A stretch of 64,000 nucleotides of DNA from positions 1 through 64,000 of IMG/VR virus record IMGVR_UViG_3300013132_000026. One strand, written 5' to 3'. Below, piece after piece: positions 14,128-32,700 of this stretch. The DNA comes from a virus. Each line of letters starts with the position of its first letter. Positions within the stretch are counted from its first letter, which is position 1. The position numbers and the translations under genes are program-made. The notes under the pieces were generated by a model. That model worked only from the letters and a program-made list of their open reading frames with translations, was not told the origin of the DNA and did no database searches.

Positions 14128-15053
14128 ACACAACTTTCATTATTAGTGGCGGCGCGGGTCGAGTAATTGCAGCAGTTCCAGCGTTAGAGAAGTATGCGCG
14201 GCTAAATCCAAATGACGATTTCAAAGTTCTCGTTTATGGATGGGAGAGTTTGTTCTGGAGCCACCCAGTTTTACAAAGCCGCACGTTCTCGATTCATCAG
14301 AAAGGAACGTTCGAAGTTAGTATCAAAAATAATCGTGTCGTTTGTCCTGAGCCTTACTACGTTCATGACTACTACAATCAGAAGATTTCTTTAGCGCAAG
14401 CCTTTGACGCCGAGATCAACAAAACATCTGACTATTCTGATTTAACGCCGCCGAAGCTTTATATCTCGACTCTTGAGCGTAACTCGGCTCTTAGAATCGT
14501 GCGCGAGACTAGCAAGGAACGCGCAAAAACGCTCGTTATTCAGCCGTATGGTAGTGGGATGGGCATTTTGAATAATCGCCCGTTTGATTCGAGTCATCGT
14601 AGCTTGGACGTGGACGCCTATTTAAAAATCGTTAAGCGCTTATCCGAGAAGAATCGCGACCTTTCGATCATTTACTTTGGCGACCAAAACTATCGCCACC
14701 CTGCCGATGACGTGTCCGTAGACCTTAAGCCTTACGGTCCCGATCTTCGCGCATACTTGTCTTTGATTGCAGTTAGCGATTACTTTTTGGGTTGCGATAG
14801 CGTTGGGCAACACATGGCTCGCGCCCTTAACAAGAACGGAATGGTCTTAATGGGATCGACCGACGAAACTAACGTTTCTTACCCAGACTATTTTACGATC
14901 TATCGCAAAAAGGGTCACGTTCCAACTTACAGTCCGATTCGTCTCTCTGGTTTAGATTGCGAGTTTGCCGACAGATTAAATGACGGCATCATGAACTTCA
15001 ACGACGAAGAGATAGAAGAGATTTGCGATACGGTAAACGCGAGCCTCTATTAA
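14124..15053 (+). CDS. GT9-like glycosyltransferase
   Basis: GGAGRVIAAVPAL; VIQPYG; DYFLGCDSVGQHMARALNK. Confidence 0.75.
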   Translation: MNTTFIISGGAGRVIAAVPALEKYARLNPNDDFKVLVYGWESLFWSHPVLQSRTFSIHQKGTFEVSIKNNRVVCPEPYYVHDYYNQKISLAQAFDAEINKTSDYSDLTPPKLYISTLERNSALRIVRETSKERAKTLVIQPYGSGMGILNNRPFDSSHRSLDVDAYLKIVKRLSEKNRDLSIIYFGDQNYRHPADDVSVDLKPYGPDLRAYLSLIAVSDYFLGCDSVGQHMARALNKNGMVLMGSTDETNVSYPDYFTIYRKKGHVPTYSPIRLSGLDCEFADRLNDGIMNFNDEEIEEICDTVNASLY

Positions 15054-15093
15054 CAAAAAACCCCCGAATTTCTTCGGGGGTCTTTTTTTGTTT
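15054..15093. terminator. Bidirectional intrinsic terminator between convergent genes
   Basis: A6-CCCCCGAA-tttc-TTCGGGGG-TC-T7. Confidence 0.85.
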
Positions 15094-15105
15094 CTACAGT
15101 CTGTC

Positions 15106-16233
15106 TTAGTTCGTAGTCGCAACGAACACGCCGTTAACCGTGTCCTGTGGCGCACCGATCTGGGTCGTGTACACAAGGTCAACCGTCTTGTTGTCACCGA
15201 TGGCGCTTGAGTGATTTTCACTTACAAGCTTCGCACCCTTGACTTGATAAATGATCTTGTTGTTGCCAGCGGGGTCTTTGAAGGTGAACTTGAGGGTCTT
15301 CGTTTCGTCGTTAGAAACGAGGAGGTCAAGATTACCCGACTGCTTAAGGTCGGCAAGAATCGCGGAAACGTTCACCGTTACTTCGATTGGGAAGTCGATA
15401 ACCTTCGCGAAGCCGAAGCGTGAGCCGAGGCGCTGGAGGGTTGTACGACCAACTGGGATTTCAATCGAGAACGACTGAATGTGAGCCGCAGTGTTGCCAG
15501 AATCGGCACCCGTTGGGAAGTCAGCGAGAACAGGGTCAGCGAGTTCGAGCGTGATGTCGCCTGGGCGCAGAGCGGAGATACCGATTGCACCGCTGTTTGG
15601 CGCAGGAAGCTGGAACTGGTTATCGCCAGTTGCGCTGGTTTCGACCGTAAGAGACGGCAGAGTGCCAGAGCTACCTTCAACAACGTTAATGTTCAGACCT
15701 TCTACCGAAACCGAAACCGTTGGAAGACCACCTACAGCAGCTTCTACCGAGTAATTCGTGATAAAGCCGTTACCGATGGTGATCGTGCTGGCGGCAGCGC
15801 CAGTGAACGAAGCGTCGGTTGAGCTTACGCCGTTAGCGTCGTTACCTTCAGGGGAGGTAAAGATGTGGAAGTTACGACCAGAAAGGGTCGCAGTGTCCGA
15901 GGTTTGGGTCGCATCGATAAGGCCCGAAATGAACGAGCGGGTCGTTCCGAGACCAGTACCTACCGAGAAACCGAGGGCCGTTTCGTTATTACCAGTGTGC
16001 AGGTAATAAGTCATATCCATCGTGACGGTGGGTGGTTCAAGGATGATAGCGTCAATACGAGCAAGGTTGCCGAATTGATTAACGTCCTGACGAGCGACAG
16101 AGAAGCCGTAGTTGGCCGACTGTACGCGGTGGAGCTGCTTGATGTTGCCGCTTGGGTGGGTCGCCGTTGGAATGAGCGTCCCGTCGCTCACAAAAAGAGC
16201 TTCGGATTGGTAGATTACTCTATTTCTTGCCAT
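15106..16233 (-). CDS. Putative major tail tube protein
   Basis: Beta-rich two-domain protein in the tail module with its own TGTAAA motif (16258-16263) and terminator. Paralogous to 26850..27620 and 28585..29742. Confidence 0.65.
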   Translation of the reverse strand: MARNRVIYQSEALFVSDGTLIPTATHPSGNIKQLHRVQSANYGFSVARQDVNQFGNLARIDAIILEPPTVTMDMTYYLHTGNNETALGFSVGTGLGTTRSFISGLIDATQTSDTATLSGRNFHIFTSPEGNDANGVSSTDASFTGAAASTITIGNGFITNYSVEAAVGGLPTVSVSVEGLNINVVEGSSGTLPSLTVETSATGDNQFQLPAPNSGAIGISALRPGDITLELADPVLADFPTGADSGNTAAHIQSFSIEIPVGRTTLQRLGSRFGFAKVIDFPIEVTVNVSAILADLKQSGNLDLLVSNDETKTLKFTFKDPAGNNKIIYQVKGAKLVSENHSSAIGDNKTVDLVYTTQIGAPQDTVNGVFVATTN

Positions 16234-16287
16234 AAGTTAGAAGAAGGTTTTAAATACTTTACATTTATTTGGGGCAGAATGGAATAT

Positions 16288-17133
16288 TTACGCCCTTGGA
16301 TATCGATAATTAATAACCTCAAAATCTAGGAACCCGATGTACGAACGGGCCGACCCGCGAGAGTCCTTGAACTTCGAAACTGTCACGTCATCAATAAATA
16401 GCTCAACGCTAGGGTCTGGGTTCGTGTAGTAGTCATCGAACGAGAACGGCGGGGTCTTGATGTCGCCGAACTCGTTGATCGGGTAGCTGCCAAAGTCCTT
16501 TTGCTTGAAAACGCGGTTCTTAGAGTCGGCAAAGATCGACAATACCCCGTCTAACGAGTAGGGGTCGTCCGCAAACACGATAGACCGCATCATTGAGCGC
16601 GTCTCGTCTTCGCCGCCGAAAGAAAACGGCGTGTTTTCGAACGAATCGGACATGATATAAATCGCGGGCAAAGTCTGATCGTAAGGCGGCAAATAAGTTG
16701 CACCGCTCCAAGGAAACTTCTTTTGCGAGGACAAGTTCTTCTCGATGACCAGATCTTCCTCGTTTTCGTTCGAGAGATAAACGTTGAAGTCCTTGACCGA
16801 GAAGCTGCCCGTTACTGCTGCGCCCGTAGCTACGCCTGCGCCCGTAGCGAGCACGCGACCGTTCAAAAAGTCGATCTTCAGTGCGCTCGACCTTGGCGTA
16901 AAAGTCGAATTGATAAAGACGCCACTAGGAATCGTTGCGCCCGTGATAGTCGAGTCGTAAACCCACTGGCGATATTGCGTGCCGAAAGCTTTATAGGTTG
17001 AAGGCAAACGAGCGTCTTGGTTATAGTAAAACCGCCCAGTTTGATTCGTGTATGCTTCGCCTTTTTGCAAAAGGTAGTGGTCGAGCCACAGTGCGAAGGA
17101 CGTTGTTACGTTATGCTGATATTGCGGTTTCAT
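16288..17133 (-). CDS. Putative tail completion/terminator (neck) protein
   Basis: Lies directly upstream of the tube gene; LPAIYI...PFSFGG pattern; synteny-based call. Confidence 0.45.
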   Translation of the reverse strand: MKPQYQHNVTTSFALWLDHYLLQKGEAYTNQTGRFYYNQDARLPSTYKAFGTQYRQWVYDSTITGATIPSGVFINSTFTPRSSALKIDFLNGRVLATGAGVATGAAVTGSFSVKDFNVYLSNENEEDLVIEKNLSSQKKFPWSGATYLPPYDQTLPAIYIMSDSFENTPFSFGGEDETRSMMRSIVFADDPYSLDGVLSIFADSKNRVFKQKDFGSYPINEFGDIKTPPFSFDDYYTNPDPSVELFIDDVTVSKFKDSRGSARSYIGFLDFEVINYRYPRA

Positions 17134-17722
17134 CTAAATTTGAGAATTCCTTTTGGTACTTGGCTAAGATCGCGCTAATGTATTTTACATTTTTAAATCG
17201 GGTTTTTCCGCGAATTTTACCTTGTTGCGTTTGAATTGCGGTTCCCGAGCGAGAGTTTTTCAACGATGTTCTTTGATCGTAGAGGTACTGACCGATACCA
17301 GAAATGCCCGTTTCGATACCTCGCGCCCAGCTTCTGCCCGAAGCCCACGGCATCGGTGAAACTTCCCAAACGTCCTCGCGTGCTGGCATGAAGATCGTCC
17401 AGTTCGCGCCATCTGGAACGGTCCCAACAAACTGAAGCGCTGTCTTTTCGAACAAATCTAAAATTGGCTGAATCGGCTCGTCACCATCGTAAAAGCCGAT
17501 GTAAGAAAATAAATTGCCGTATCCGCCAAGAGTGCCGCTAGTGTTCGGAGAAGATGGGCCAGCTAAAATTTCTTTTGTGATTGGATGATCAAGGAACTCT
17601 CGGATCATTCTCCGCTTGATTGCATTGAAGCGTGCAGTAACTTGCTTCTCGAAAGATCTGCGAATGATTTCGCCAGATTCGCGAGCGATCAATGCTTCAA
17701 CACCACGGGGAAGTCTTGCCAT
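17111..17722 (-). CDS. Putative neck/tail-joining protein
   Basis: Synteny in the head-tail junction block; basic C-terminus. Confidence 0.4.
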   Translation of the reverse strand: MARLPRGVEALIARESGEIIRRSFEKQVTARFNAIKRRMIREFLDHPITKEILAGPSSPNTSGTLGGYGNLFSYIGFYDGDEPIQPILDLFEKTALQFVGTVPDGANWTIFMPAREDVWEVSPMPWASGRSWARGIETGISGIGQYLYDQRTSLKNSRSGTAIQTQQGKIRGKTRFKNVKYISAILAKYQKEFSNLDETAISA

Positions 17723-17723
17723 T

Positions 17724-18179
17724 TTATTCGTTAATCGGAGTCAAGAGAAACGAGTAGTATCTTGGGCCAAACATTCCGTTTGGTTTGTAATCTGAGACGA
17801 ACTGGTAGCGGCGACCATCAAACTCGACTTTGCGAGCTTCTTTCAGGTAAGGCCATGCAGCTGCGTCAACTTTAACCTTAACTGTTCCTGCGGGATACAA
17901 CATTCGTGTCTGATTAGTTGATCCGGGGTACATGGGCTTGTCGTTAGACAAGTATCTAATCTTTGCCTTAAACGTGTAGGACTTTGTAGTGTACGTTGGT
18001 TCGTTAACGGCACGGGAATCGTCTGCTCCATAGAATGCATTGTAGCTACTAGAAGTTGTTAGAATCGTCATTTCTGGATTCATGATAACAGTAATGGTTC
18101 GTTGAAACGTCTCGAAAACGTCATCAAAAATACTGTTAATGTAGGATTTTTGAGAATCAGAAATGTATGAGGTTGGCAT
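17724..18179 (-). CDS. Putative head-closure/head-tail adaptor protein
   Basis: Small beta protein ending VEFDGRRY.F; GTGTAAA 7 nt upstream on the minus strand. Confidence 0.45.
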   Translation of the reverse strand: MPTSYISDSQKSYINSIFDDVFETFQRTITVIMNPEMTILTTSSSYNAFYGADDSRAVNEPTYTTKSYTFKAKIRYLSNDKPMYPGSTNQTRMLYPAGTVKVKVDAAAWPYLKEARKVEFDGRRYQFVSDYKPNGMFGPRYYSFLLTPINE

Positions 18180-18232
18180 ATTTTTCTTTACACTTTTTAT
18201 CTCTAATTTATTATATAGTAAGGCAAAAGGTT

Positions 18233-18529
18233 ATGACGGGCAAAGAATACCTGAACGACAGGGTTAAGGTCAACACCTCTGATTTATTCAAGAGGATGTT
18301 AATGATTTTGGAAGACATTAAGCATGAACATGATAGGCAATTTGCAAAATTGCTAGAAGCTGCGCCCGAAAGCTTCAAACCAGTTGTCTCCCAAGCTAAC
18401 TATCTAGATGACGAAAAAGCCGCATATTTGCGGAAACGTATCTTAGATGTTGGCAACGAACTGCTTAGAAAACTAGCTTCTGAGCTAGAGCAAGTTCGCG
18501 TCGAATTTCACCATACATTTAAACAATAA
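18233..18529 (+). CDS. Hypothetical protein
   Basis: ATG 18233; helical ORF leading the TMP operon. Confidence 0.6.
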   Translation: MTGKEYLNDRVKVNTSDLFKRMLMILEDIKHEHDRQFAKLLEAAPESFKPVVSQANYLDDEKAAYLRKRILDVGNELLRKLASELEQVRVEFHHTFKQ

Positions 18530-18530
18530 C

Positions 18531-19277
18531 ATGAAAGAACTCTATAGTTTCACCGTAAATCTCGAAAAAGAAGTCGAAAAGACCGAGACTAAAGAAGAGG
18601 ACGGCAAGACGATCACCGTTACCCAAAAGGTAAAGGAAGAGGTTCCCGTGAAGCTAATCATCAAGCAGCCTTCGCGAAAGAATATCGAAGACGCCGATCT
18701 TCAGTATAGCATCGAGATGTCCTCGTGCATTAAGAAGGGTATTTTGACGCGAGGGATGTTAATGAAGAAATACGCCGATACGGGCGGCGTTCTTACCGAG
18801 AGTGACGCTCAAGAGATGCTCAAGATCTACGGAACTATTGCGGGTTTAGAACAGGAGTATGTGAGTATGGTAGCGCGCACTGAAAATCGCGACAAAGAAA
18901 ATGAAACGCGCATTCTTGAGAAGATTATGGCAGGGAAGCAGCGGCTAATGCAACTAGAGTCGTCGTATTCGAATTTGATTTCAAACACTGCCGATATGAT
19001 TGCGGTCAATAATGTTATTCGCTGGTATTGTTTGACTCTTATTCACAAGCAAACTCTGCCAGACGGTCAGATCGAGCCAATGTTCCCCGGTTATACTCTC
19101 GAAGATAAGATCGAGACGCTACACAAGCTCGATGAAGAAGAAGATCCGCTGTATAAAAAAACTTACAAGAAATTGGCTAGCTTTGTAGCTTTCTGGTATT
19201 ATAGCAAGAATGCGACTCGCGAAGACTTTGACGCTTTAAACAAAGACATTGAAGAAGGACAATTCACTAGCGAGTAA
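18531..19277 (+). CDS. Putative tail assembly chaperone
   Basis: Charged helical protein two genes upstream of the TMP; synteny. Confidence 0.45.
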   Translation: MKELYSFTVNLEKEVEKTETKEEDGKTITVTQKVKEEVPVKLIIKQPSRKNIEDADLQYSIEMSSCIKKGILTRGMLMKKYADTGGVLTESDAQEMLKIYGTIAGLEQEYVSMVARTENRDKENETRILEKIMAGKQRLMQLESSYSNLISNTADMIAVNNVIRWYCLTLIHKQTLPDGQIEPMFPGYTLEDKIETLHKLDEEEDPLYKKTYKKLASFVAFWYYSKNATREDFDALNKDIEEGQFTSE

Positions 19278-20241
19278 GCTTTTCCTACTGTTTTATGAAA
19301 TATCGAAAGGTTTCGCAAAAAGAGATTTTTGCGGAAAAGATATTTACATCAAACATCTAGGAGTTAACGAAAAATCGTTTTTCGACTATCGTTATCAAGA
19401 GTTTTTAAAGCACGCTAAAGATGCTGGAATTCCGACTGAAGAAGAGGCTCTGAAAAAAGCCAGTGAAGAAGGTTTTTGGACAGACTCTGACGAGAAGGAA
19501 ATCGAGACGACAAAAAGCTATATTGATCGCCTCATAGGTACGAGAAAAAGTCTTTTTCGGCAACTTGAGATTAAAGAGATCAACGAGCAAATAACTGCCG
19601 AAAGAGAGAAGTTACACAAAAAAATTCAACAGCGGCGCGAAGTCCTCGGTAAGACCGCTGAAGAATATGCGAGCAACAGGTCAAATGACTATATCATTTA
19701 CCAAAGCTTGTACAAAGACGAGAGTTTAAAAGAGCGTCTATTTTCGAAAGAAGATTTCGAGGAAATCACTTACGAAGACCTTATTCGTTATATTTTGTTT
19801 TATAACGAGTATATGACCGAGATCGAAGACCTGAATTTACAGAAGATCGTTTTGGCCGACTTCTTTCAGGTCTACTTCTTAGTTTTGGAGCAACCGATTC
19901 AATTCTTCGGTAAGCCGATGATCGAACTGAGCGACTTACAAGTTCGATTAATCGTTTACGGCAAGATCTTTAAGAACATATTCGAGACAACACAGAACAT
20001 TCCAGACAACATTCGTCAAGATCCAGAGGCGTTGTTGCAATACGTCGATAAGACAAAGGCCAAAGAGCGTTTCGACTCGAAGAAAAAGACTAATGAAAAT
20101 GCTAGCGCCGAGATGGTATTCGGCGCAACAAAGGAAGAATTGCCACAAGGAGCCGAAAAAGGCAAATCGCTCAATAAAATCATGCGCGAGAAGAAGGTTA
20201 TGAATATGGAGGAGCTAATGAAATTACATGGTGAGGAGTAA
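19249..20241 (+). CDS. Putative tail assembly chaperone / pre-TMP protein
   Basis: TTG start overlapping the previous gene; coiled-coil; immediately precedes the TMP. Confidence 0.45.
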   Translation: MKKDNSLASKLFLLFYEISKGFAKRDFCGKDIYIKHLGVNEKSFFDYRYQEFLKHAKDAGIPTEEEALKKASEEGFWTDSDEKEIETTKSYIDRLIGTRKSLFRQLEIKEINEQITAEREKLHKKIQQRREVLGKTAEEYASNRSNDYIIYQSLYKDESLKERLFSKEDFEEITYEDLIRYILFYNEYMTEIEDLNLQKIVLADFFQVYFLVLEQPIQFFGKPMIELSDLQVRLIVYGKIFKNIFETTQNIPDNIRQDPEALLQYVDKTKAKERFDSKKKTNENASAEMVFGATKEELPQGAEKGKSLNKIMREKKVMNMEELMKLHGEE

Positions 20242-20274
20242 CTTTTGGGTGTAAATAACTCAAAAGGTTAAAGA

Positions 20275-23200
20275 ATGGCAAAAGGAATCCAAGTACCCGT
20301 AACGCAGACTGGGCTAAGTCAGTCTATTAATCAAGCCGTTAAGAAAGTAGGGCCGATTAATGTACCGATTAACGTCAATCCCAATGCGTTCAAGAACCTT
20401 TCACAGCCACTTGGTAGAATCACGGGTCTTGCCAGCGAGTTTGAAAAGTCAATTGCGGCGTCTAATGCGCGTGTTATCGCATTCGGCGCGTCAGTAGGTA
20501 TCATCAATGGCTTTCAGAACGCCCTTTCTCAACTTGTAAAAACGGGCATTGAAGTTCAAAAAACTCTTGCCGATATTTCTGCTATCAGTGGGGCAACTGG
20601 CGTTGAGCTTTCTAAGCTCGCAGATGGTATTTTCGATGTTGCCAAAAATACGGGTCAGTCATTCAAAACGGCATCTGAAGCTGCACTAGAGTTTTCTCGC
20701 CAAGGTTTGGCGTTAGAAGAAACGATCAAGAGAACAAACGATGCGTTAACACTGAGCCGCTTTACTGGTTTAAGCGCAGCCGATTCGGTAGATACTCTAA
20801 CTGCCGCATTTAACTCGTTCCAAGAGTCTGGAGTCACTACGGCAGAAATTCTGAATAAGTTAGTCGCAGTTGACTCGGCTTATGCAGTTTCTGCTGCTGA
20901 CCTTGCAAAAGCTATTTCTCGCGTAGGTTCAGTAGGTATCGAGGCTGGCGTTTCGCTAGATGAACTTAATGCTGCGGTAACGGCAGTTCAGCAGAGAACT
21001 GCGCGTGGTGGTGCAGTTATTGGTAACGCATTCAAGACGATTTTTACAAACCTTAGATCCGAGAATGCGATCAAGGCTTTGCGCGATATTGGAGTAGAGT
21101 CTCTTGACCTTCAGGGAAATTTAAAGCCTTCGCTACAAGTTATTAAAGAACTTGCGGTCGCCGTGCAAGGTTTAGGAGAGGGTGAACGTGTTCAGATTTT
21201 AGAAACGATCGCTAGTAAGTACAACATTAACATTTTGTCTGCACTTATTGGCGATTTGACGGATAAGCAGAGTGCATTTACTGGAGCGCTGGAAAAGAGC
21301 GCCAATGCAGCGTCAGAAGCTTACGATAGACAAAAGCAGTTAAACGAAACTTTGGCGGCGGCGATTAACAATACGACCGTTTCCGTAACGCAACTTTTCA
21401 ACAAGCTCTCAGAAATTGGAGTAAACGAAAATCTAACTGCGCTGCTGAAGTTTGTAAACGATTTACTATCTGGTTTCAATAAGCTGCTCGACTCTGAAAG
21501 CGTCGGCGGAAACATTGCGAAGGGTTTGATCAAGGGCATCAGCGATGTATTTTTCACCGTTGGTCTTCCAATCATTGCGGCCATCTTCGTAAAACTGACT
21601 CGCGATATTGCTCAGTTCGGTATCGAGTCTTTAAAAACTATTCTCGGAATCAATCAACAGGTGCGCGAGCGTCAGGCTCTTGAACAAGCCGTAGTAAATA
21701 CGCTAATTAAAGATCAGCAAGTAATGGCTACGATTCTTGCTCTGAGTGGAGACAGGGCAAAGCAAGAGCAGTATTTACTTAATGTTTACAATCAGCAGAT
21801 TGCCGCACTACAAAAGGTTCAGAGCATCGCACAATCTGTTGCTCCTGCTCTTCAAGGCGCTGGACTTAGCGCGACATCTGGTCAAGTTCGCAGACGCGCA
21901 GCTGGTGGTTATCTGCCAAGTCAAGAAGCCTCCGATGTTCGTCGCGGTGTTGGCGGCGCAAGTCCATCCTCAAAAGTAGTTTCGATTCCAAATTTCGCAT
22001 TTGGCGGCGGTAAGCACGGGACAATGATCGCCAATACGAGCGAGTATATTGTTCCTAATTTTGCGAACGGTGGGTCGGCAATCTTTAATCCTGATATGGT
22101 TAAGGCTTATGGATTGCCAGCGGGAGCCAAGAAGATCAATGCGTCTGGCGGCTATGTCCCGAATTTTGCTAGATATGTTTATGATGCTGACCGTATCGTA
22201 GCAGATAAAAATGCCTTATTAAAGGCAATTTTAGCTTCTAGAGCGAAAAAGAATTTGATTGTCGGACCAGCCGGAGCCGGTAAAAGTACTTATGGCGGAG
22301 GGCTTGGATCGTTCATAACGAACGTTGCTCAACTAGGCGATGCTACTGAAATTGATATTTTATCTAGCGCGGGCAGAACAAAGGAGGGGGGATTTTCGAA
22401 AAATTTCCAAGAACTTGTAAACGCCGTAAACGTTTCTGGAGGCAAAGTTTCTTATCTATATGCTAGTAATATGGATATCCTTTCTCGCCGCTATGGAAGA
22501 ACAGAAAATGCTATTCAAGAAGGAGATTTGAGAAGTAAAAAGCAAATTGTAGGCACAATTTATGCGCCATTAAATCAATTTGACTTTATTTCAAAGATGA
22601 AAGGAAGTTCTAAAAACTTCCAGATGACTCGCGGATCTGGCGGCTTTATTCCAAATTTTGTAAATGAGCTACCCGGTAAAACGCCTGCATATAGTCAGCC
22701 AAAAACTAAACCAAAAGGTTCTAATTTAGATTCAGTTACAGTAGACGCAAGATGGTCGGGAGGAGCAGTTATGCTTTTGCCGTCCAGCAAGCAAAGACAG
22801 AAATTTTTAAAGCAAGGATACAGTACAGCGCCAAGTGCAAACGTAAGCAAAAAGGAAGTTCTACCTGATGGGAGAAGAATTTCGGGTGTTCTTTTTGATG
22901 CTTTCGCTGTAATACCAAGTGAATTAAAAAGTAGAAGTGGACAAGAAATTGCAAATATTGAAGAACGAGTTAAAAAGGTTGTTTATCAAACTGGATCTGA
23001 AATAATAGCAGATTTTGATCCACTACAAAGACCGCAAGTAGGAGCAGATGAGTTTGCAAGAGTATATGATAAAAAAGGTGGTGCCGCTGGTGCCGCATCC
23101 GCAGTTGCTGGATCGATTTTTGAAGCTGCCGTTGACTATGCATTAAATCCACAAAAAGCAACGAATGTACAAAGTACGCTCGATGTTCCTAGGTTATCAC

Positions 23201-26200
23201 CAGAATTAATTAAAGCCTTTGGAATTACCACTCCTTATGGAACATCGTCTGGAGGCGATTATAAAATTAGTGCCGAGAGAGCACAAGCGTTTGCAGACCA
23301 AATTATTAGAAATAAAGTGTATCAGCCGCCAGCTCCAAAAGCTGCTGCGTCTACTGGTTACGTTCCAAATTTTGCGAAACAATCGGCGCTTTCTGATGCT
23401 ATCGGACGTGAAATTGGCGCTGGAGTTAATCCAAGCCAAATCCGAGTCACGCAAGACGGAAGACTCAGAAACTCGCAAAATCCAAATGGCCTTGCAGTAA
23501 TCAACACAAGAGACGAGCCAAACGGAAAAGTTCCAAACTTTGCCAGAGAAAGATATGCCGCTGGAGAAATTGTAAATGGGAAAAAGGTTGGTGGACAGTT
23601 TAAACCAGCATCGGCAGCTTCTGGTCGGACCGCGAGTGCAACTACGCCACTAACAGATCAAACTGCAAAATTGTTTTTGGCATTTTCTGGACTAACTCTT
23701 GTTTCTTCGACTCTACAATCAACATTCAAAGATACTGAATCTAGTATAGCTAAATTCGCCACTGCAACATCTAATGTTGTTCAAACGCTTTCAAGTGGTG
23801 CGCTGCTTGGTAATTTAGTGCAGCAAACTGGATTGTCTGGTTTGGCTAAAAGAGGAGGTGTTCTTGGAAGTGTTGGACGTATAGCTGGAAATGCTGGAAT
23901 AATTGGCGCAATCGGTGGCGCTGGTATAGGTATTTATCAAGAAATTCAGGCAGCAAGAGAAGCGGAACGTCAACGACCAATTTTAGCTGGAGAAGAAGGA
24001 GCTGGTCGTAGAATCGCAGATATCGCCGCTCAAGAAACCAATCCTGAGTCAATCAGAGAACAGCTACTTAAAGATTTCCAAGCTGGACAAGCAGAATTTG
24101 AAAGAATTCAAGCTCAATTACAACAAGGAAGCGAAAGAGCTGCGGCGGCTCGGCTTAATGTCGCCGCTTTTGGAACTGGTGGAGAATTCGACCCACAGCT
24201 TCAAGAAAATGTAAAATTTTTAGAAGAAAGAAAAAAACTGGAAGAAGAGCTTAATACTTTACTGGGAGGTCAGCAAAAATTTTTGCAACAAATTGGAGCA
24301 ACGACAAATGATATAGAAAATGCTGCCAAGAGAAAAGAAAAATTAGAAAAAGAAGCGAATACCGAAGCTGAAAGACGCATAAATCTAGAGCAGGCTTTTG
24401 AAAAAATTGCTTTATCTATTTTAAAGGGCGATAATGAACGTTTGAAAGCGCGTGCGCAAATTGCCGCGCAAGATATTAAAAATGCAGCCAATCTTAATAG
24501 TTTTCAAAAACAAGAATTAGAGTTTAATAGAAAAATTCAAGACTTTGAAGAAGAGTCAACGCAGAAGCAAAGAGACCTTTTAAATTTAACTGTTCAGCAG
24601 TTAATTAAGGGCGGAAGTTTAGCGAGCGTAACTGAAGAACAAGCGAATAGGCTCAAGCAGATACTTGAAAGTGGAACAGAAATTGCCGATAACTCGCAAT
24701 TAATTGCAGATCTTGGAATTAAAAATGCAACTGTAGTTAATGAAGAAATTGAAAAAGTATCGAACAAAATAGCTTTGCAAAAGGAAGAGACTCGTGGGCT
24801 AATAGAGCGTTTTTCAATTACTCAAAGAGCCTCAATTGAGGCGTCTAAACAGTTAGGTTTTATTGAAGCTCAAACAAGAGCTTTAAATGCTCAAGCTGAA
24901 ACTGCAAGGGAAATTGAAATAATAGAAGCTAAAAGAAGTCGCTTAAGATCGGGAAAGGCTCAAGAATTAAATATTGAAAATATAAGATCAGGTATAGCGA
25001 CAAGAGGCATAGCTTCTCCGACGCAAACTAGACAGCTTCTAGAAGCTGAAAAAAATCTTAATTTTGTAACTAAAAGAAATAATGTAGAAGAAACTTATAG
25101 GCGCTCTCAAGAAGAAGGCTTTAACGCTTTAAGAAATGCATATATTGAACAAGTAAATGGTTCTGAATTCATATCTGACGCAGAGCAAAAACGGGCGGAA
25201 AGTTTATTGCAATCAGCTAAAACAGCAGAAGATTTACAAAAGATTTATGCTGCATTTGACCCTAGTTTTTCTGGAATTGGGACAAACGAAAATCGAGCAT
25301 TAGAATATCAATTGTCTTTATTTGAACAGTCAAAAGCTATATTAGAAGAAAGAAAAAAAATAATAGACGCTAATATAAGTTTATCGAAAGAGGAAAGAGA
25401 CCTCGAAATTCAAAAGCTAAATATTGAAATTAAGCGCAGAGATCGCGTATTAGAAATTGCGAAAATCAGAGAAAGCTCTAGGCTAAAAGCTGGGGTTGCT
25501 ACCGCGCTTGACGACTTAGAGGCTGAATCAGAAAACTTTTATGAAACACTCGGCAACAGAACTACAATAGCTTTTAGGGATGGCTTAACAGACGCATTGA
25601 GTGCGGCTATTTCTCAAACTGACGATCTTGGTGATGCGCTGCAAAATGTTGCGCGTAATTTCTTGCAGACGATTCAGCAGGCATTTTTGCAACAAGCTTC
25701 GGGGCAAATTGTGCAGTTAATCGGAAAGAGCTTCAATTTTGCCAATGGTGGAATCGTAAAAAAATACGCTGGAGGCGGAAAGGTAGTTGGAGGAAGCGGC
25801 TATAAAGATGACGTTCCAGCGATGCTCACAAGCGGAGAGTTTGTGATGAGAAAGTCTGCCGTGCAGAAGTATGGCATGGAAAATCTTGAAAGAATGAACA
25901 ACGGCGGGATCTTCCTGCCCGGTGTTCGTGGCGCTGGTGCAATCTCTGGCTACGGCGACATCACAAAGTTCGCAAAGCAGACAACTACTAGCGGCGCAAC
26001 AGACGTTATGATGGGCGGCGCGTCTTCGGCATTCATTAACCTTGAAGATCAAAGCGCAAGGCTTTCTCGTTTTGGACTTCTAAACGAAGATACGATTAAT
26101 CAAGAAATTAGAGCGGCACAAGAACAGGGCTTAAATCTTATTAGAGAAAGAGAAGCTTATAGAACGGCACAGAGAAAAGCGTTCCAGCAACAGCTGGTTA

Positions 26201-26850
26201 GCACTTTAGCTTCTGCCGCAATAAGCTTCGGAGTTGGAAAATTGACCGCTCCAAAGGTAACGGGCCTTCCCGCATCTTTATCAAAAACAGGAACTCCATT
26301 TGCTGCAAACGCTGGCCCAGCATCATTTGGCAATGTCGCTTTATTAAAGGGCGCTCCAATTAAATTTAGTGGCGGAATTGGTTCATTTATGAATCCAGTT
26401 GGCGCAAAGCCAATTCCATTTCGTGCTTATGGTGGATTGATGCGCCGCTACGCTGCTGGAGGTCCAACTGACGACATTCCTGCTCTATTGATGGGCGGCG
26501 AATATGTCATGAGCCGTCAATCGACGCGCAAATACGGCAAGCAGTTCTTCGATGCGATGAACCAAGGTAGAGCGCCAAGATTCGCAGAAGGCGGGGTGGT
26601 CGGTGGAGCTAACGGAACTGAACTTGGGGATAAGTTTGACAAGCTCTCTACCAAACTCGAAACGACCGCAGCTTCGAACATTAGCATCAACATTAATGTC
26701 ACGAACGGCGGATCGTCAGAAACTCAAACTCAAGGCGACACGAATCGCGGCGGCATCGATTACAAGAAGATGGGCGATCAGATTCGCCAAGTTGTTATCC
26801 AAACGATCAACGAAGAAAAACGCCTCGGTGGTTCACTGAGAAGTAGATAA
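20275..26850 (+). CDS. Tape measure protein (TP901-like core) with inserted enzyme-like modules
   Basis: N-terminal TMP core (EFSRQG...LNKLVAVD...RGGAVIGNAFKTIF); long coiled-coil; two C-terminal DDxPAxLxxGExVM repeats and FAxGG motifs; internal GPAGAGKST. Confidence 0.9.
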   Translation: MAKGIQVPVTQTGLSQSINQAVKKVGPINVPINVNPNAFKNLSQPLGRITGLASEFEKSIAASNARVIAFGASVGIINGFQNALSQLVKTGIEVQKTLADISAISGATGVELSKLADGIFDVAKNTGQSFKTASEAALEFSRQGLALEETIKRTNDALTLSRFTGLSAADSVDTLTAAFNSFQESGVTTAEILNKLVAVDSAYAVSAADLAKAISRVGSVGIEAGVSLDELNAAVTAVQQRTARGGAVIGNAFKTIFTNLRSENAIKALRDIGVESLDLQGNLKPSLQVIKELAVAVQGLGEGERVQILETIASKYNINILSALIGDLTDKQSAFTGALEKSANAASEAYDRQKQLNETLAAAINNTTVSVTQLFNKLSEIGVNENLTALLKFVNDLLSGFNKLLDSESVGGNIAKGLIKGISDVFFTVGLPIIAAIFVKLTRDIAQFGIESLKTILGINQQVRERQALEQAVVNTLIKDQQVMATILALSGDRAKQEQYLLNVYNQQIAALQKVQSIAQSVAPALQGAGLSATSGQVRRRAAGGYLPSQEASDVRRGVGGASPSSKVVSIPNFAFGGGKHGTMIANTSEYIVPNFANGGSAIFNPDMVKAYGLPAGAKKINASGGYVPNFARYVYDADRIVADKNALLKAILASRAKKNLIVGPAGAGKSTYGGGLGSFITNVAQLGDATEIDILSSAGRTKEGGFSKNFQELVNAVNVSGGKVSYLYASNMDILSRRYGRTENAIQEGDLRSKKQIVGTIYAPLNQFDFISKMKGSSKNFQMTRGSGGFIPNFVNELPGKTPAYSQPKTKPKGSNLDSVTVDARWSGGAVMLLPSSKQRQKFLKQGYSTAPSANVSKKEVLPDGRRISGVLFDAFAVIPSELKSRSGQEIANIEERVKKVVYQTGSEIIADFDPLQRPQVGADEFARVYDKKGGAAGAASAVAGSIFEAAVDYALNPQKATNVQSTLDVPRLSPELIKAFGITTPYGTSSGGDYKISAERAQAFADQIIRNKVYQPPAPKAAASTGYVPNFAKQSALSDAIGREIGAGVNPSQIRVTQDGRLRNSQNPNGLAVINTRDEPNGKVPNFARERYAAGEIVNGKKVGGQFKPASAASGRTASATTPLTDQTAKLFLAFSGLTLVSSTLQSTFKDTESSIAKFATATSNVVQTLSSGALLGNLVQQTGLSGLAKRGGVLGSVGRIAGNAGIIGAIGGAGIGIYQEIQAAREAERQRPILAGEEGAGRRIADIAAQETNPESIREQLLKDFQAGQAEFERIQAQLQQGSERAAAARLNVAAFGTGGEFDPQLQENVKFLEERKKLEEELNTLLGGQQKFLQQIGATTNDIENAAKRKEKLEKEANTEAERRINLEQAFEKIALSILKGDNERLKARAQIAAQDIKNAANLNSFQKQELEFNRKIQDFEEESTQKQRDLLNLTVQQLIKGGSLASVTEEQANRLKQILESGTEIADNSQLIADLGIKNATVVNEEIEKVSNKIALQKEETRGLIERFSITQRASIEASKQLGFIEAQTRALNAQAETAREIEIIEAKRSRLRSGKAQELNIENIRSGIATRGIASPTQTRQLLEAEKNLNFVTKRNNVEETYRRSQEEGFNALRNAYIEQVNGSEFISDAEQKRAESLLQSAKTAEDLQKIYAAFDPSFSGIGTNENRALEYQLSLFEQSKAILEERKKIIDANISLSKEERDLEIQKLNIEIKRRDRVLEIAKIRESSRLKAGVATALDDLEAESENFYETLGNRTTIAFRDGLTDALSAAISQTDDLGDALQNVARNFLQTIQQAFLQQASGQIVQLIGKSFNFANGGIVKKYAGGGKVVGGSGYKDDVPAMLTSGEFVMRKSAVQKYGMENLERMNNGGIFLPGVRGAGAISGYGDITKFAKQTTTSGATDVMMGGASSAFINLEDQSARLSRFGLLNEDTINQEIRAAQEQGLNLIREREAYRTAQRKAFQQQLVSTLASAAISFGVGKLTAPKVTGLPASLSKTGTPFAANAGPASFGNVALLKGAPIKFSGGIGSFMNPVGAKPIPFRAYGGLMRRYAAGGPTDDIPALLMGGEYVMSRQSTRKYGKQFFDAMNQGRAPRFAEGGVVGGANGTELGDKFDKLSTKLETTAASNISININVTNGGSSETQTQGDTNRGGIDYKKMGDQIRQVVIQTINEEKRLGGSLRSR

Positions 26851-27620
26851 TGAAATCATCGATCTCAAATTATGAAAACAGTCTATATCTCAGTGGCCTC
26901 AAGATCTTTGGGGTCACAGATACAAACTTTGGCTACTCGCTTCCCGTTGAGCACATCAACGTAATCGGCAATTCAAAGTTCGCGACGTTCACGAACGGCG
27001 CACCACAGTCGTCACTCAGCGTTCAAAAATACCTTTCGAAAGACGACTTTTTGCTGAGAATGACTGGCGAAGGTCCGATTAGCGGCGGCTTATTCTACAA
27101 TAATAAGAATTTTTCCTTTCGTTCAGCTTATTTGAATTCTTATTCGGTATCGTGCGCAGTTGGCAACTTCCCGAATCTTAGCGCAGACTTTTCCGTATTT
27201 GGCGACATTGGTACAGGATTGGCCCAGTCAACGTCGGGTGAAACGGGCAAACTAAGCGTCATTAGACCCGCCGATATCCTCATCGAATGCGATGGTAGCG
27301 GGTCGAACCGAATCGAGGCGTTTACCTACTCTCTTGAGTGCGCCAGACAAGCTTTCTATCATCCAACGGGTTCGGCTCCGATGGACGTGGTGACTCAAAA
27401 GCCATTCCGAGTAACGGCGCAGTTCACGATTGCGATAGATGACTACGAATCGAAAAGACTTTTCGATTATGTTGTAGATTCGAATAAAAGAAACGTTAGT
27501 ATAACAGTAGGTTCGTTAGCTACGTTTACAATGGCAAATATGGAGCTTCTCAGCGAAACGGTCAACAGCACAGCAACGGACGACCTTGTGCTGACGCTTA
27601 ACTATCAAGGATTCATCTAA
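26850..27620 (+). CDS. Tail tip protein, tube-fold paralog
   Basis: YLNSYSVSCAVGNFP, IRPADI and IEAFTYSL align by eye with the major tube protein. Confidence 0.55.
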   Translation: MKSSISNYENSLYLSGLKIFGVTDTNFGYSLPVEHINVIGNSKFATFTNGAPQSSLSVQKYLSKDDFLLRMTGEGPISGGLFYNNKNFSFRSAYLNSYSVSCAVGNFPNLSADFSVFGDIGTGLAQSTSGETGKLSVIRPADILIECDGSGSNRIEAFTYSLECARQAFYHPTGSAPMDVVTQKPFRVTAQFTIAIDDYESKRLFDYVVDSNKRNVSITVGSLATFTMANMELLSETVNSTATDDLVLTLNYQGFI

Positions 27621-28585
27621 TGTCATTCCTTTACGATAGAGACCAAAACGTAACTGGAACGATTCCGCCGTCGTTCACTTTCAAACCGTCTTACGGAACG
27701 ACCGTTTCGTTCAACGCTGACCTTTCGCAGTACGAGACGACCGACAATTATATCTATACGATGCCAAAGGGCGCGAATCATTTGCAACTAGAGTTTGCGA
27801 TGAATTTCGACAACAGAAAAGAAGAAGAGGCGCGTCAGATCTTAGGTTTCTTCGAAAGCTTGAACGGCACTGGCTACTTTCAGTATACGGACCCAGCGGG
27901 CATCTACAAACCGATCAATTTGTTCACGAACGACTTTACAAATTCGTTCGACAAAAATGATTTGCACTCGATCACCGCAAATCTGAATTCGGACCAGTTT
28001 TCAAGTCTGCTCAACTGGAACAATCCTTTTTTAGCTCAAACCGCCAATGTTAAAGGGGACTGGGCTACTAGCACCTCTTATCTCGAATACGACGTAGTGA
28101 GATACACGGGAAACGCAACATATCCAAGTAACACGGGCAACCTATACGACTCATTTTACTACTGCACTGGAGACCACACTTCAGACGCGAGCTTCAGCGC
28201 GTCAAATATGAACAACGATAAGTGGACTCGCGACTTCTTCTTCCAGCCAACTTACTCGTCGCAAATCCAAAAAGAGACCGCAGTTGTAAAAACGCAGCTA
28301 CCTTACTCGTACACGAAGCGCACAGACTTTGGCCTGCACTCGAACACGATAAAGTCTTTCAATCTAGAGTTCAAGGGAGTTTCGGATAAGGAAGCGCGAT
28401 GCATCTTGCACTTCTTGATCTCGAAACAGGGTTTTCGCCGCTTTCAATACAAGTTCCCAAAGATCTACAATCAGAACAAATACTTCTTCGCGACAACTTG
28501 GTCGCACACGATGGTTTACAAGGACGTTAACGATATTTCGATAACGATTCGCGAAGACCCGTTAGGCGTTAGGAAATCATACTAA
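27620..28585 (+). CDS. Minor tail (distal tail, lambda gpM-like) protein with a duplicated domain
   Basis: Two copies of F.F.P.Y...G.....F.L.F.....EAR.IL.F...G...FQY..P.IY flank a W..STSY.EYDVVRY insert. Confidence 0.6.
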   Translation: MSFLYDRDQNVTGTIPPSFTFKPSYGTTVSFNADLSQYETTDNYIYTMPKGANHLQLEFAMNFDNRKEEEARQILGFFESLNGTGYFQYTDPAGIYKPINLFTNDFTNSFDKNDLHSITANLNSDQFSSLLNWNNPFLAQTANVKGDWATSTSYLEYDVVRYTGNATYPSNTGNLYDSFYYCTGDHTSDASFSASNMNNDKWTRDFFFQPTYSSQIQKETAVVKTQLPYSYTKRTDFGLHSNTIKSFNLEFKGVSDKEARCILHFLISKQGFRRFQYKFPKIYNQNKYFFATTWSHTMVYKDVNDISITIREDPLGVRKSY

Positions 28586-29757: not shown

Positions 29758-32700
29758 ATGAGCAAAAGAATTTCAGACGTTACAGAGGCAACGCGGATCG
29801 ACTCGAACGATCAGATCTTGTTCTTGCAAGCTTCTTCTAAGAAAACCAAAAGAATCTCAAGAGATAACTTTGCCAAGAGCCCCGGTTTCGGTGGAGCTAT
29901 TCCTGAACTTTCTGGAGACATTGAAGCTCCAGCTACGCCAACTGGACTCGCAGTAACTACTGCGTCTGAAATCATGCCAGATGGCACCGAGCGTGTCATT
30001 ATTCGTGCCAAGATCACGCCAAATACAGAAGAAGATTTAGAGTCGTATAGTTGGTATCTTAGACGTGCAAGCGGGACTCCAACGTTCGATGGCAGCGGCG
30101 TTTTGACTGGCTATTCGGTCGCTCAGGTTTTTACTCCAGTACTGGAGTCGATGCCAGCAGAAGGTAGTATTGGCACAGATGGCAAAGTAACTAAAGAGTG
30201 GACGGTAGTTGCGAATAGTTATTACGAAGTTCGAGTTGCTGCTTTAGATACAGATGGAAATTTTTCTGATTACACGCAACTCAATAACACGAATGTAATC
30301 TTGTCATCAAAAGACTCGGTTGCGCCAAATGCGCCAACAAGCGTCGCTGCGACATCTGCAATTAGATCTGTATTTTTGACTTGGGTTAATCCAGCCGATA
30401 AAGATTTGGCTTATGTTAGAGTTTTTAGACCAACAAATGTAACCAATGCCTATAACATTGTTTCGGCAACAAGAAGCGCTACAACAGTAACGATTACAAC
30501 AGCAACTGCGCATGGATACGCCAATGGAAATTCCGCAACGGTTGTGGGATTATCTGGGACCGTAAATCCAAACGGTTCAAAGACGGTTACGGTCGTAAAC
30601 TCGACGCAGTTTACATACACGATAGCTTCTGCTATCGGATCTGAAACGTATGCCATAACTAATGGAACAACGACATTAACGTCTAATGTTTTTTCTGTCT
30701 TTGATGGCTACGCAGATGCTTTTACCGACACTAGCACAGAACAGGGAAAGACTTATAGCTACTGGTTAACTGCCGTAGACTATTCTGGAAATGAAAGCAC
30801 TTATCCTTCGAATGTTGGTAGAACAACACCCGGTACTGTAGAAACGACCGACGTAAAAGATTTTGCCATCAATGCAACCAAGATGTACAACAATACGATT
30901 GTACTCGAAGGTGATTCTTGGACGAGCAATACTGGTACATATACTATTTCTTGGAACAGCCATTTTCTGTATTATCACGGAGTAAAGTATACTGTCGCAT
31001 CTGGAAGCTTAACTGCGTCTTCTGAAGTTGCTGGGGCTAGAACTGCGTATGTTTACGCTACGATTCCAGTTTCTGGATCAACAATCACTTATAGCACATT
31101 TGTAGTTACTGGCACCACTTATCCAAATGATTATCCAGTCTTAACCGACTCGATGTTCATGATCGCTACAAATGTTAATGGCGCTTATGACTTAGCTTGG
31201 AACGCTATTGCAAATGCGGTAATTGGTTCGGCGTATATCAAAAACGCGGCGATCGATAGCGCGAAGATCAGAGAAGTTATTGCTGACAGAATTTCAACTG
31301 GAACAATTGATGCTAAAACACTAACGATCACTGGCGGCGGCGTTATCAAGAGCGCGGGCGTAACTAACTTCAGTTCAGGTCAAGGCTTTTATCTCGAAGG
31401 TACATCTTCGGGAACAACTTCTAGGTTTGGCGTTGGCGACTTAAGTGGCTCCGGTTCTTTCGTAAAGTTTGACGTTAACACGCTAACTGTTCAGGGAACG
31501 CTTCAAGCGACCGCTGGTCACTTCGGCGGCGCAACTGGCGTCACAATCAACGCTTCTGGTTTAACAGTATCGACTACTGGTATAATCAATTCTACTGGCA
31601 CCAACTATAATTCTGGAACAACTCAATTCGATGGAACGGGCGGTTTCTTCTTGGGAAGAGTTGGAGGCGCGTATCAATTTTTTGTTGGGTACACAGCAGC
31701 AGATAAATTCATTCGATGGAACGGAACCGACCTGACCGTTCGCGGAACGATCAATGCCACCGCTGGCTACTTTGGGTCTTCGGCTAGCGTTGTTGCGGTA
31801 GACTCTTCTGGTTTGACAGTTTCAACGTCTGGAAGAATCAACGCTTCCGGCGTAACTTACAATTCTGGAACTACTGCTTTTGATGGTAATGGATTTTTCT
31901 TAGGTTATGCTGGTGCCGCTTATCAGTTTTTTACTGGAAGTGTCGCAAGCGGAAAGTTCATACGTTGGAACGGAACCGACTTAACTGTTCAGGGAACGCT
32001 TCAAGCGACCGCTGGTCACTTCGGCGGCGCCGATGGCGTCACAATCAACGCTTCTGGTTTGACAGTTTCAACGTCTGGAAGAATCAATGGAAACGTTAAC
32101 TATAACGTTTCCTTTTCTCCTCCATTTGGAGGTGGCGACAGCAAGGGCTTTTTCTTAGGTTATGCTGGTGGCGCTTATCAATTTTTTATTGGACATGGTG
32201 GCGCGTCGCCTGGTCAATACCTATATTGGAACGGAACTTCCTTATCTATTACTGGAGAAATTAGAGCGATATCTGGTTATATCGGAGGGACGACTAGTGG
32301 CTGGGAAATTACTTCGGGAACGATATCAAATTATAACGCAGCAAGCGGAAGAACTACTACGCTAACCTCTGATGCTAAAATCGCAATATCAAATCCGCTG
32401 AGTACTATGACGCTAGACAATTCTTCTAATCAGGGAAGCATTACTATCAGCGGAACATATCCAGCGGTTCTTACCGCTGGCGTAGCAAATAGCGTTTTAA
32501 CGCTTGGATCTGGAACAGCTAGATCTATCTTAAATCAAACTTCTGGTTTGTTTTTGGATGACGATGGAGTAGGAACTAGAAAAGTAACAATTAATACTAC
32601 CTCGCCAGTAGAGCTTAGACGAGATGGATTATTTTTAGGGGTAGGTACTGGTAAAAAGATTGTCGTCGGATCGAGTACATATTCTAGCATTCAAGATATC

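Follow-up and report, generated by a model that had tools for sequence, protein, structure and literature searches.

The stretch of DNA analysed here, which we call the window (64,000 nucleotides), is the first half of the 127,126-base IMG/VR virus record IMGVR_UViG_3300013132_000026, which is 88% complete by the CheckV estimate and comes from an uncultured lake-water tailed phage with a lambda-like order of tail-tip genes. The longest open reading frame (ORF) of the window, at 20275..26850 on the plus strand, translates into 2191 amino acids (aa), and its product is a tape measure protein of the TP901-type family. The Pfam domain PF10145 (PhageMin_Tail) covers aa 123-312 (20641..21210, plus strand) with 95.2 bits against a cut-off of 33.2 and is the sole Pfam match at E <=1; the same domain was recovered when the genome was searched, which places the protein in the TP901 family of tape measure proteins. 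Furthermore, ten PHROG tape-measure families match the protein, each with an E value of 1e-15 or better, and a minor tail protein gene (PF05939) lies downstream at 27620-28585.

The protein is built of a conserved N-terminal core (aa 1-540, within which the PF10145 domain lies), an array of modules that fold independently and are each set off by the peptide A-A-x-G-[YF]-[IV]-P-N-F-A, and a hydrophobic, coiled-coil C-terminal half. Within the array, all of it on the plus strand, the tripeptide PNF occurs at aa 572, 594, 629, 793, 1031 and 1087, where 0.14 occurrences are expected from composition, and the six [IV]PNF[AV] motifs span aa 572-1090. They are preceded by a half motif, AAGGYLP (21898..21918), which has the upstream half without NFA and is kept in the alignment consensus. 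A triple-motif region follows at 21970..22170, in which a motif scan places PNF 1 (P572), PNF 2 (P594) and PNF 3 (P629; ASGGYVPNFA, 22141-22170) with spacers of 13 and 26 aa between them, and then come PNF 4 (GSGGFIPNFV, 22633..22662), which has the 10 nucleotides TCTGGCGGCT in common with PNF 3, PNF 5 (ASTGYVPNFA, 23347..23376) and PNF 6 (DEPNGKVPNFA, 23515..23544). The first-pass annotation of this DNA had reported these motifs, and its coordinates are exact throughout, from AAGGYLP to the end of GKVPNFA at 23544. When all six frames of the whole 127,126-base genome were scanned (frames of at least 80 aa), [IVL]PN[FY] was found at the six tape measure sites and in one unrelated place, DVPNFNS at 48932.

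Our data show that selection acts on this motif as a peptide, not as DNA. The consensus given above is the logo of 446 unique motif windows, and among 401 matches to a looser pattern with a recognisable motif ending the residue after proline is Asn in 395, Ser in 5 and Arg in one. In 137 motifs taken from 24 sequences P-N-[FY] is fixed while every codon for Pro (four), Asn (two), Phe (two) and Ala (four) is in use; 75 distinct 15-nucleotide motif cores encode 21 peptide cores, and distinct motif 30-mers average 60% DNA identity. The use of all synonymous codons at such low DNA identity indicates selection on the peptide, for which DNA homology alone is no explanation. Microhomology may aid exchange at the motif, yet it cannot be the reason for the motif's existence. 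Across homologs the triple-motif region is 64-96% identical.

Three modules lie between the motifs: M0 (154 aa, 22171..22632), M1 (228 aa, 22663..23346) and M2 (46 aa, 23377..23514). In models that AlphaFold 2 (AF2) gave for aa 540-800 (from an alignment of 40 sequences) and for aa 785-1100 (from one of 41 sequences), M0 and M1 are independently folding domains. The predicted local distance difference test score (pLDDT) is mostly 75-89 in M0 (aa 630-788), with some 10-residue blocks at 65-70, and mostly 75-91 in M1 (aa 818-1021); all six motifs and the triple-motif region score below 50 and appear as low-confidence linkers. M2, a small conserved module that is 53-100% identical across homologs, scores 64-75.

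M0 carries a Walker A sequence, GPAGAGKST (22264-22290), and its predicted fold resembles P-loop kinases. The top neighbours found with VIA are all P-loop kinases, with Z scores of 7.3-6.0, a range in which values below 8 are common by chance according to the tool. They include the UMP kinase 1ukz (Z 7.3, root-mean-square deviation 3.6, 124 residues aligned), an archaeal adenylate kinase (Z 7.3), the polynucleotide kinase 4gp6 (Z 7.1) and the zeta toxin 6epg (Z 6.9), and the best Foldseek match is an adenylate kinase at E 0.007. No kinase or ATPase family of Pfam reaches its cut-off in M0 (best AAA_30, 18.6 bits against 27), searching the modules separately gave only sub-threshold P-loop matches, and neighbours in the ESM Atlas at 0.77-0.81 are leads only. 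We therefore describe M0 as a predicted P-loop kinase-like module of unspecified substrate, the level of Z not being decisive.

M1 matched no known fold: the best results were E 0.48 with Foldseek against the PDB, Z 4.6 in a wide VIA search, Z 3.9 with VIA on the Foldseek list and E 0.024 in BFVD, and the ESM Atlas returned nothing usable. A phmmer search of 1.84 billion representatives gave five matches to M1, all in proteins of 1486-2307 aa, three of which were already among the listed tape measure relatives described below. In the alignment M1 has conserved G..FE (23110-23139), D (23176-23190) and D-x-K (23251-23271) positions; E950 is invariant and D970 nearly so, and the consensus shows the D-x-K at 994-996. 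These residues raise the idea of a PD-(D/E)xK nuclease, for which the fold searches gave no nuclease, and it remains a lead only.

Two globular inserts of about 155 and 230 aa had been read from the sequence alone, and the measured 154 and 228 aa, confidently folded between poorly predicted linkers, bear this out. That the inserts look enzymatic holds for M0, with its Walker A and P-loop kinase-like fold at Z of about 7, and not for M1, which has no known fold. Likewise, the first-pass annotation had described the inserts and the region after them as AT-rich. The G+C content at third codon positions (GC3) is indeed low in M0 (0.29) and M1 (0.21), but the depression is wider than the inserts and takes in the whole gene centre: it is 0.40 in the N core, 0.42 in the triple-motif region, 0.36 in M2, 0.20-0.21 in aa 1095-1710 and 0.42 at the C end.

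In order to see how the array varies, we searched for relatives with aa 540-1100 and obtained 714 matches at E <=0.001 among 8000 scored candidates. The 120 matches listed are all proteins of 1463-3144 aa, each with 3-9 PNF. For the architecture counts, which cover 121 proteins, the sequences were cut at PNF and the pieces clustered by single linkage, giving 33 piece clusters and 47 architectures; some of the proteins are truncated where their contig stops, and four of the 'modules', each about 1000 aa long or longer, result from stray PNF far downstream. The order found in the window (two short spacers, M0, M1, M2) occurs in 33 proteins, the same order without M0 in 19, and M1 before M0 in 17, the remaining architectures having up to six other modules. 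Whole modules are thus gained, lost, replaced and reordered in this family, with breakpoints on the motif peptide. The claim that the locus is a polymorphic modular cassette, and the expectation that aligned homologs would keep the motifs while the modules between them change in number, order and identity, are both borne out by these counts. The further suggestion that PNF serves as a recombination junction is correct insofar as exchange breakpoints fall on the motif, but the conservation of a peptide written in every synonymous codon means that DNA homology is insufficient to account for it.

Gain or loss of a single module can be followed in the nearest backbones. P0051 is 98% identical to the window's protein in the N core and 100% in M2; for P0009, P0011 and P0012 identity is 95% over the N core and 81-93% over the C end. 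In the alignment all four are nevertheless without exactly M0 and one motif. Less related backbones carry an M0 that is 79% identical to that of the window. When the same proteins are compared, M0 is 74-79% identical against 70-86% for the N core, and across homologs identity ranges over 36-79% for M0 and 25-56% for M1. Searching for the modules as free-standing, shorter proteins gave three matches, two of which carry PF10145 while the third is a 260-aa piece of a 917-base contig. In six diverse homologs Pfam finds PF10145 only, and no peptidase domain. Lysozyme or GH19 domains are present in the homologs P0069, P0076 and P0084 (aa 1862-1986, 2111-2163 and 1534-1587), a long way from the array and with no flanking PNF. 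The array is thus something other than the muralytic domains classically found in tape measure proteins; in the window's own protein Pfam finds no peptidoglycan hydrolase domain at E up to 1.

A closer view of one exchange is given by a related locus, L009. The window is 98.1% identical to it in DNA from 14475 to 22166, and the identity ends within the Phe codon of PNF 3. From 23074 onward the two match again at 82%, and from 26425, inside the IPFRAYGG that opens the second of the C-terminal units described below, at 96%. L009 has a single junction at which the 5' side of the window's PNF 3 is joined, within the shared TCTGGCGGCT, to 13 nucleotides identical to PNF 4, and the sequence beyond is unrelated. 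Between 22166 and 26425 the comparison is a mosaic, with 98% identity on its left, then none, 82%, 72%, 88% and 96%. The centre of this mosaic also has low GC3 (about 0.2-0.3, with M2 at 0.36) against 0.40-0.42 at the gene ends. The data suggest that the gene centre was imported from a relative of lower GC.

Breakpoints also gather at the motif when many sequences are compared. Of 690 ends of homology blocks in the tape measure ORFs of 24 sequences, 266 lie within 15 nucleotides of PN[FY], against 19.7 +/- 4.4 for random positions, and if only the array zone is considered the count is 266 of 472 against 39.6 +/- 6.1. The block ends come from all ordered pairs of the sequences, internal ends only, and are not independent events, and a conserved motif beside variable modules attracts ends by itself. 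In an independent lake-water sequencing run (X4) contig pieces cover 21964-22142, 22636-23394 and 23398-23547, with boundaries at PNF 3, 4, 5 and 6, and one contig swaps 103 bases for 97 others from 23547, at PNF 6; this is a weak hint, contig ends having many causes. Two further X4 joints, 22659>23104 and 23151>23351, were set aside for their short sides (24 and 48). In runs X3-X5 the M0 stretch 22166-22636 is uncovered at 90% likeness, a gap in cover that proves nothing; two other runs, X1 and X2, may have supplied the DNA of the window itself.

The C-terminal half begins with hydrophobic, glycine-rich segments at aa 1131-1149 and 1194-1221 (23665..23937, plus strand; read from the translation), which by analogy with other tape measure proteins may have a membrane role. 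Further on, it contains two related units on the plus strand, at 25729..25923 (SFNFANGG ... DDVPAMLTSGEFVM ... KYG ... MNNGGIFLPG) and 26413..26595 (IPFRAYGG ... DDIPALLMGGEYVM ... KYG ... MNQGRAPRFAEGG), which hhalign finds homologous to one another with a probability of 99.5%. Their common form is [FY]AxGG ... DD[VI]PAxL..GE[FY]VM ... KYG ... MN, the second unit ends in APRFAEGG, and in three homologs LPKFA stands 25 residues after GEFV. The family profile matches the units to lambda gpH and to gp16 of the mycobacteriophage Douge (955-1033 and 1411-1461), one of the Douge sites being followed by LPRFDSGG. Compared directly with lambda gpH, the unit profiles match residues 732-777 (E 1e-5) and 750-785 (E 6e-5). 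A phmmer search of the PDB with the C-terminal 372 aa gave a chance row only.

These likenesses are of interest for the processing of tape measure proteins. According to the available part of one account, lambda and T5 have the only tape measure proteins known to be cleaved, and about 14 kDa is removed from a Gly-rich region of lambda gpH, with both site and protease unknown (PMC12617516); the products are gpH* and gpHC (PMC12617516, PMC10721106, both available in part). We compute that a cut of gpH at 731-734 (FHFATGG) would leave 12.5-12.8 kDa. For T5 pb2 the accessible portion of the report maps the cut after R1127 (PMC10038345), where the sequence (AY543070) reads NANSFVPR|AEGGMMYPG. When the 1219-aa pb2 was scanned with the motif matrix (positions -6 to 0), the top match was 1120-1126 (NANSFVP), one residue before the cut, and the only match of the motif hidden Markov model (HMM) was 1118-1126, with a domain E value of 1.3. 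Although the score of this match is weak, a top match ending one residue from the mapped scissile bond of a protein of 1219 residues is unlikely by chance (about 5 in 1200, allowing a window of +/-2). T5 VPR|AEGG also closely resembles APRFAEGG in the window's own protein. On sequence likeness the PNF peptide may represent, in several copies, the junction at which a C-terminal repeat unit present in many tape measure proteins ends, and whose counterpart in T5 pb2 (FVPR|AEGG) is cut. As a separate observation, lambda gpH (J02459) has a PNF-like stretch at aa 103-111, SFGGMIPMF, of 7.9 bits, a score reached by 53 of 1000 shuffles.

Directly upstream of the tape measure gene are two conserved plus-strand ORFs of 248 and 330 aa (18531-19277 and 19249-20241, overlapping by 29 nucleotides), which by their position only are candidates for tail assembly chaperones and which have no Pfam or PHROG match. 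Homologs of both stand upstream of the tape measure gene in 23 of 23 related loci, including L008, whose tape measure protein has no PNF. In some relatives the pair abuts without overlap, as in L005 (2561-3376 and 3376-4353).

Taken together, these observations lead us to a tentative explanation, the best we have although we would not put it quite at an even chance, in which the gene encodes a polyprotein of exchangeable modules that is delivered ahead of the DNA, and the peptide fencing the modules is a processing site. Judged from its sequence, the motif most likely functions at the protein level, with a cut just after P-N. One chain would be assembled into the tail with the module array carried within it, and cutting at the motifs would take place while the tail is being assembled, afterwards, or at ejection. 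The tape measure chain would exit before the DNA, and M0, M1 and M2 could be released, in a few copies per virion, into the infected cell before any phage gene is expressed. M0 would be a small ATP-using, kinase-like enzyme able to work only in a cytoplasm, its need for ATP pointing to action there, and the fast divergence of M1 (25-56% identity) would fit contact with variable host factors. Two published cases make such a route conceivable: tape measure proteins exit the tail before the DNA and build a conduit across the envelope (PMC12617516, as far as available), and an RNA polymerase fused to the tape measure protein of P23-45 transcribes the pre-early genes (PMC10770324, available part).

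Several points weigh against this explanation. We infer cleavage, packaging in the tail lumen, injection and anti-host activity alike, and the support for cleavage is circumstantial, coming from the likeness to the mapped T5 pb2 site. With ten conserved residues the motif is rather long for a site cut by a protease, and a binding handle would fit such a length too; folded domains of 150-600 aa would be hard to fit into the lumen of a tail tube. The kinase label of M0 depends on Z values of about 7, common by chance, and on the Walker A, with no Pfam family at cut-off. The likeness to T5, which was spotted by eye before it was tested, is weak: the matrix match scores 6.7 bits, which 95 of 1000 shuffles reach, the HMM domain E value is the 1.3 given above, the full 10-residue matrix ranks the site third, and T5 has R in place of the near-invariant N and lacks the F. 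Moreover, the unit profiles have no match in T5 pb2, the triple-motif profile has none in T5 pb2 or lambda gpH, the triple-motif region does not match the C-terminal units significantly (hhalign E 0.008 and 0.03, probability <5%), and the best match of the matrix in lambda gpH is aa 103-109 (SFGGMIP), not the C-terminal cleavage region.

A bolder form of the same explanation is that P-N-F is a general maturation site of siphophage tape measure proteins, cut after the residue that follows Pro, possibly autocatalytically through the near-invariant Asn. The site of the lambda gpH to gpH* cut would then be named, near aa 731-737, and the gene would be a polyprotein that releases swappable enzymes, three to six copies of each, into the cytoplasm ahead of the DNA. 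Self-cleavage at Asn-X bonds is known from the capsids of nodaviruses and tetraviruses and from FlhB/YscU. We regard this generalization as rather doubtful.

Instead of being cut, the motif might be a structural handle or linker, a short strand that docks the module boundaries to a conserved partner such as the lumen of the tail tube, assembly chaperones or adjacent chains, and thereby allows varied modules to be threaded into a single tail. In that case the modules would remain part of the chain and would work in cis while the envelope is crossed or the tail assembled. Ten residues conserved as a peptide suit a binding epitope, the motifs lie in what appear to be exposed linkers, the two ORFs in chaperone position accompany the gene in each of the 23 related loci, and the account of the P23-45 polymerase, in the part available, mentions no processing of the tape measure protein (PMC10770324). 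However, the same two ORFs accompany the PNF-less gene of L008 and are thus not specific to the motif, and an uncut handle leaves unexplained both the near-invariant Pro-Asn and the likeness to the mapped cut site of T5. We consider such a handle unlikely, though well worth keeping in mind.

Alternatively, the modules might not be cargo at all but take part in tail assembly inside the producing cell, perhaps in an ATP-using assembly or quality control step, or they might serve as fillers that tune tail length. The ATP needed by M0 would also be present in the producing cell, and no anti-host family was matched in any module. This is nevertheless improbable: M0 is as conserved as the N core and yet dispensable in near-identical backbones, as would suit an accessory more than an assembly part, M1 diverges much faster, as might be expected of a protein meeting variable host factors, and in leaving the tail the DNA comes after the tape measure proteins (PMC12617516, available text). 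Least probable of all is that the motif DNA is mainly a recombination hotspot whose short repeats promote illegitimate or homologous cassette exchange and whose peptide has no function, for although breakpoints coincide with the motif, the direct repeat TCTGGCGGCT flanks M0 and the L009 junction is a chimera of both its copies, the fixed P-N-[FY], the Asn in 395 of 401 matches and the free use of codons at about 60% DNA identity speak for selection on the peptide, and selection for intact modules would also leave breakpoints at module edges.

The processing explanation can be set beside systems already described. In the available part of its report, T5 pb2 is likewise a tape measure protein that is processed in the course of tail assembly, at a site between an enzyme domain and the remainder of the chain (PMC10038345), and its SFVPR|AEGG resembles G[YF][IV]PNFA and, more closely, the APRFAEGG of the window's protein; it differs in having a single site instead of an array and in releasing a muralytic metallopeptidase. 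Lambda gpH shares the C-terminal unit (matched at 732-777 and 750-785), a PF05939 gene downstream and a similar tail-tip order, but it has no module array and no PNF at its C-terminal region, and the link to processing is one that we infer. The gp96 of Thermus phage P23-45 offers a non-muralytic enzyme on a tape measure protein that acts early in the host cytoplasm, whereas it is a single N-terminal fusion for which the accessible text describes no module exchange (PMC10770324). In the 5002 residues of gp96 we found no PNF, P[NR]F, [YF]AxGG or GE[FY][IV], and no profile match below E 0.04.

Polyvalent proteins, reportedly described by Iyer, Burroughs, Anand, de Souza and Aravind in 2017, are said to be giant virion-borne proteins of phages and conjugative elements with varied enzyme domains in series, often including a processing peptidase, and are thought to be delivered with the DNA. 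The family of the window likewise has several unrelated modules in one chain, while none of the domains that polyvalent proteins are said to carry was matched here; polyvalent proteins are not known to share a junction peptide or to act as tape measure proteins. Tape measure proteins of the TP901-1 type with embedded cell-wall hydrolase domains are known from mycobacteriophages and staphylococcal phages. They have the PF10145 N core in common with the present family, some homologs of which carry lysozyme or GH19 domains, but these are not part of the PNF array, and in the window's protein such domains are absent. Our literature search found no account of a motif-fenced module array in tape measure proteins.

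Relatives of the gene were also sought outside the environmental records. Neither megablast of the tape measure gene nor tblastn of aa 536-1142 matched any of 50,697 records of cultured phages, and a scan of prokaryote genomes of 185,579 species with aa 401-632 found no relative and hence gives no clue to the host.

A Pfam and PHROG scan of 20 neighbouring ORFs put a name to few. The series of plus-strand structural genes is interrupted, shortly before the tail genes, by four minus-strand ORFs (375, 281, 203 and 151 aa, 15106-18179) that have no Pfam or PHROG match. Three adjacent paralogous plus-strand ORFs at 5225-6601, 6613-7932 and 8577-9938 (458, 439 and 453 aa) match 'regulator of chromosome condensation' PHROGs (RCC1-like repeats; E 4e-41 to 4e-44) and, more weakly, a tail-protein PHROG, the latter suggesting structural or fibre proteins with a beta-propeller fold. 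A 1178-aa protein encoded downstream of the tail-tip genes (29758-33294, plus strand) matches a 'tail needle' PHROG with its last 50 residues (E 9e-6) and is probably the central fibre. A Lon-like ATP-dependent protease of 804 aa is encoded at 54984-57398 on the plus strand (phrog_4871, E 5e-191); a 36%-identical copy is present in the one other PNF-bearing virus record searched and none in the one complete record with a PNF-less tape measure protein, two records being too few to tie this candidate reader to the motif.

During infection, tape measure proteins belong to the earliest phage proteins that enter the cell. If the tape measure protein described here is indeed a rack of exchangeable, pre-made proteins, it would represent a widespread route by which phages act on the host before their genes are expressed, and enzymes of unknown fold could readily be drawn from its modules, M1 having no relative outside these proteins among the 1.84 billion representatives. 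The junction peptide is a precise and testable candidate for tape measure processing, for which the site and protease of lambda are unknown (PMC12617516, in the part available), and if the autocatalytic, general-site reading is true, it would name the site of lambda's 50-year-old gpH to gpH* cut. If the peptide suffices to fence a module, it could be used to load chosen proteins into phage tails.

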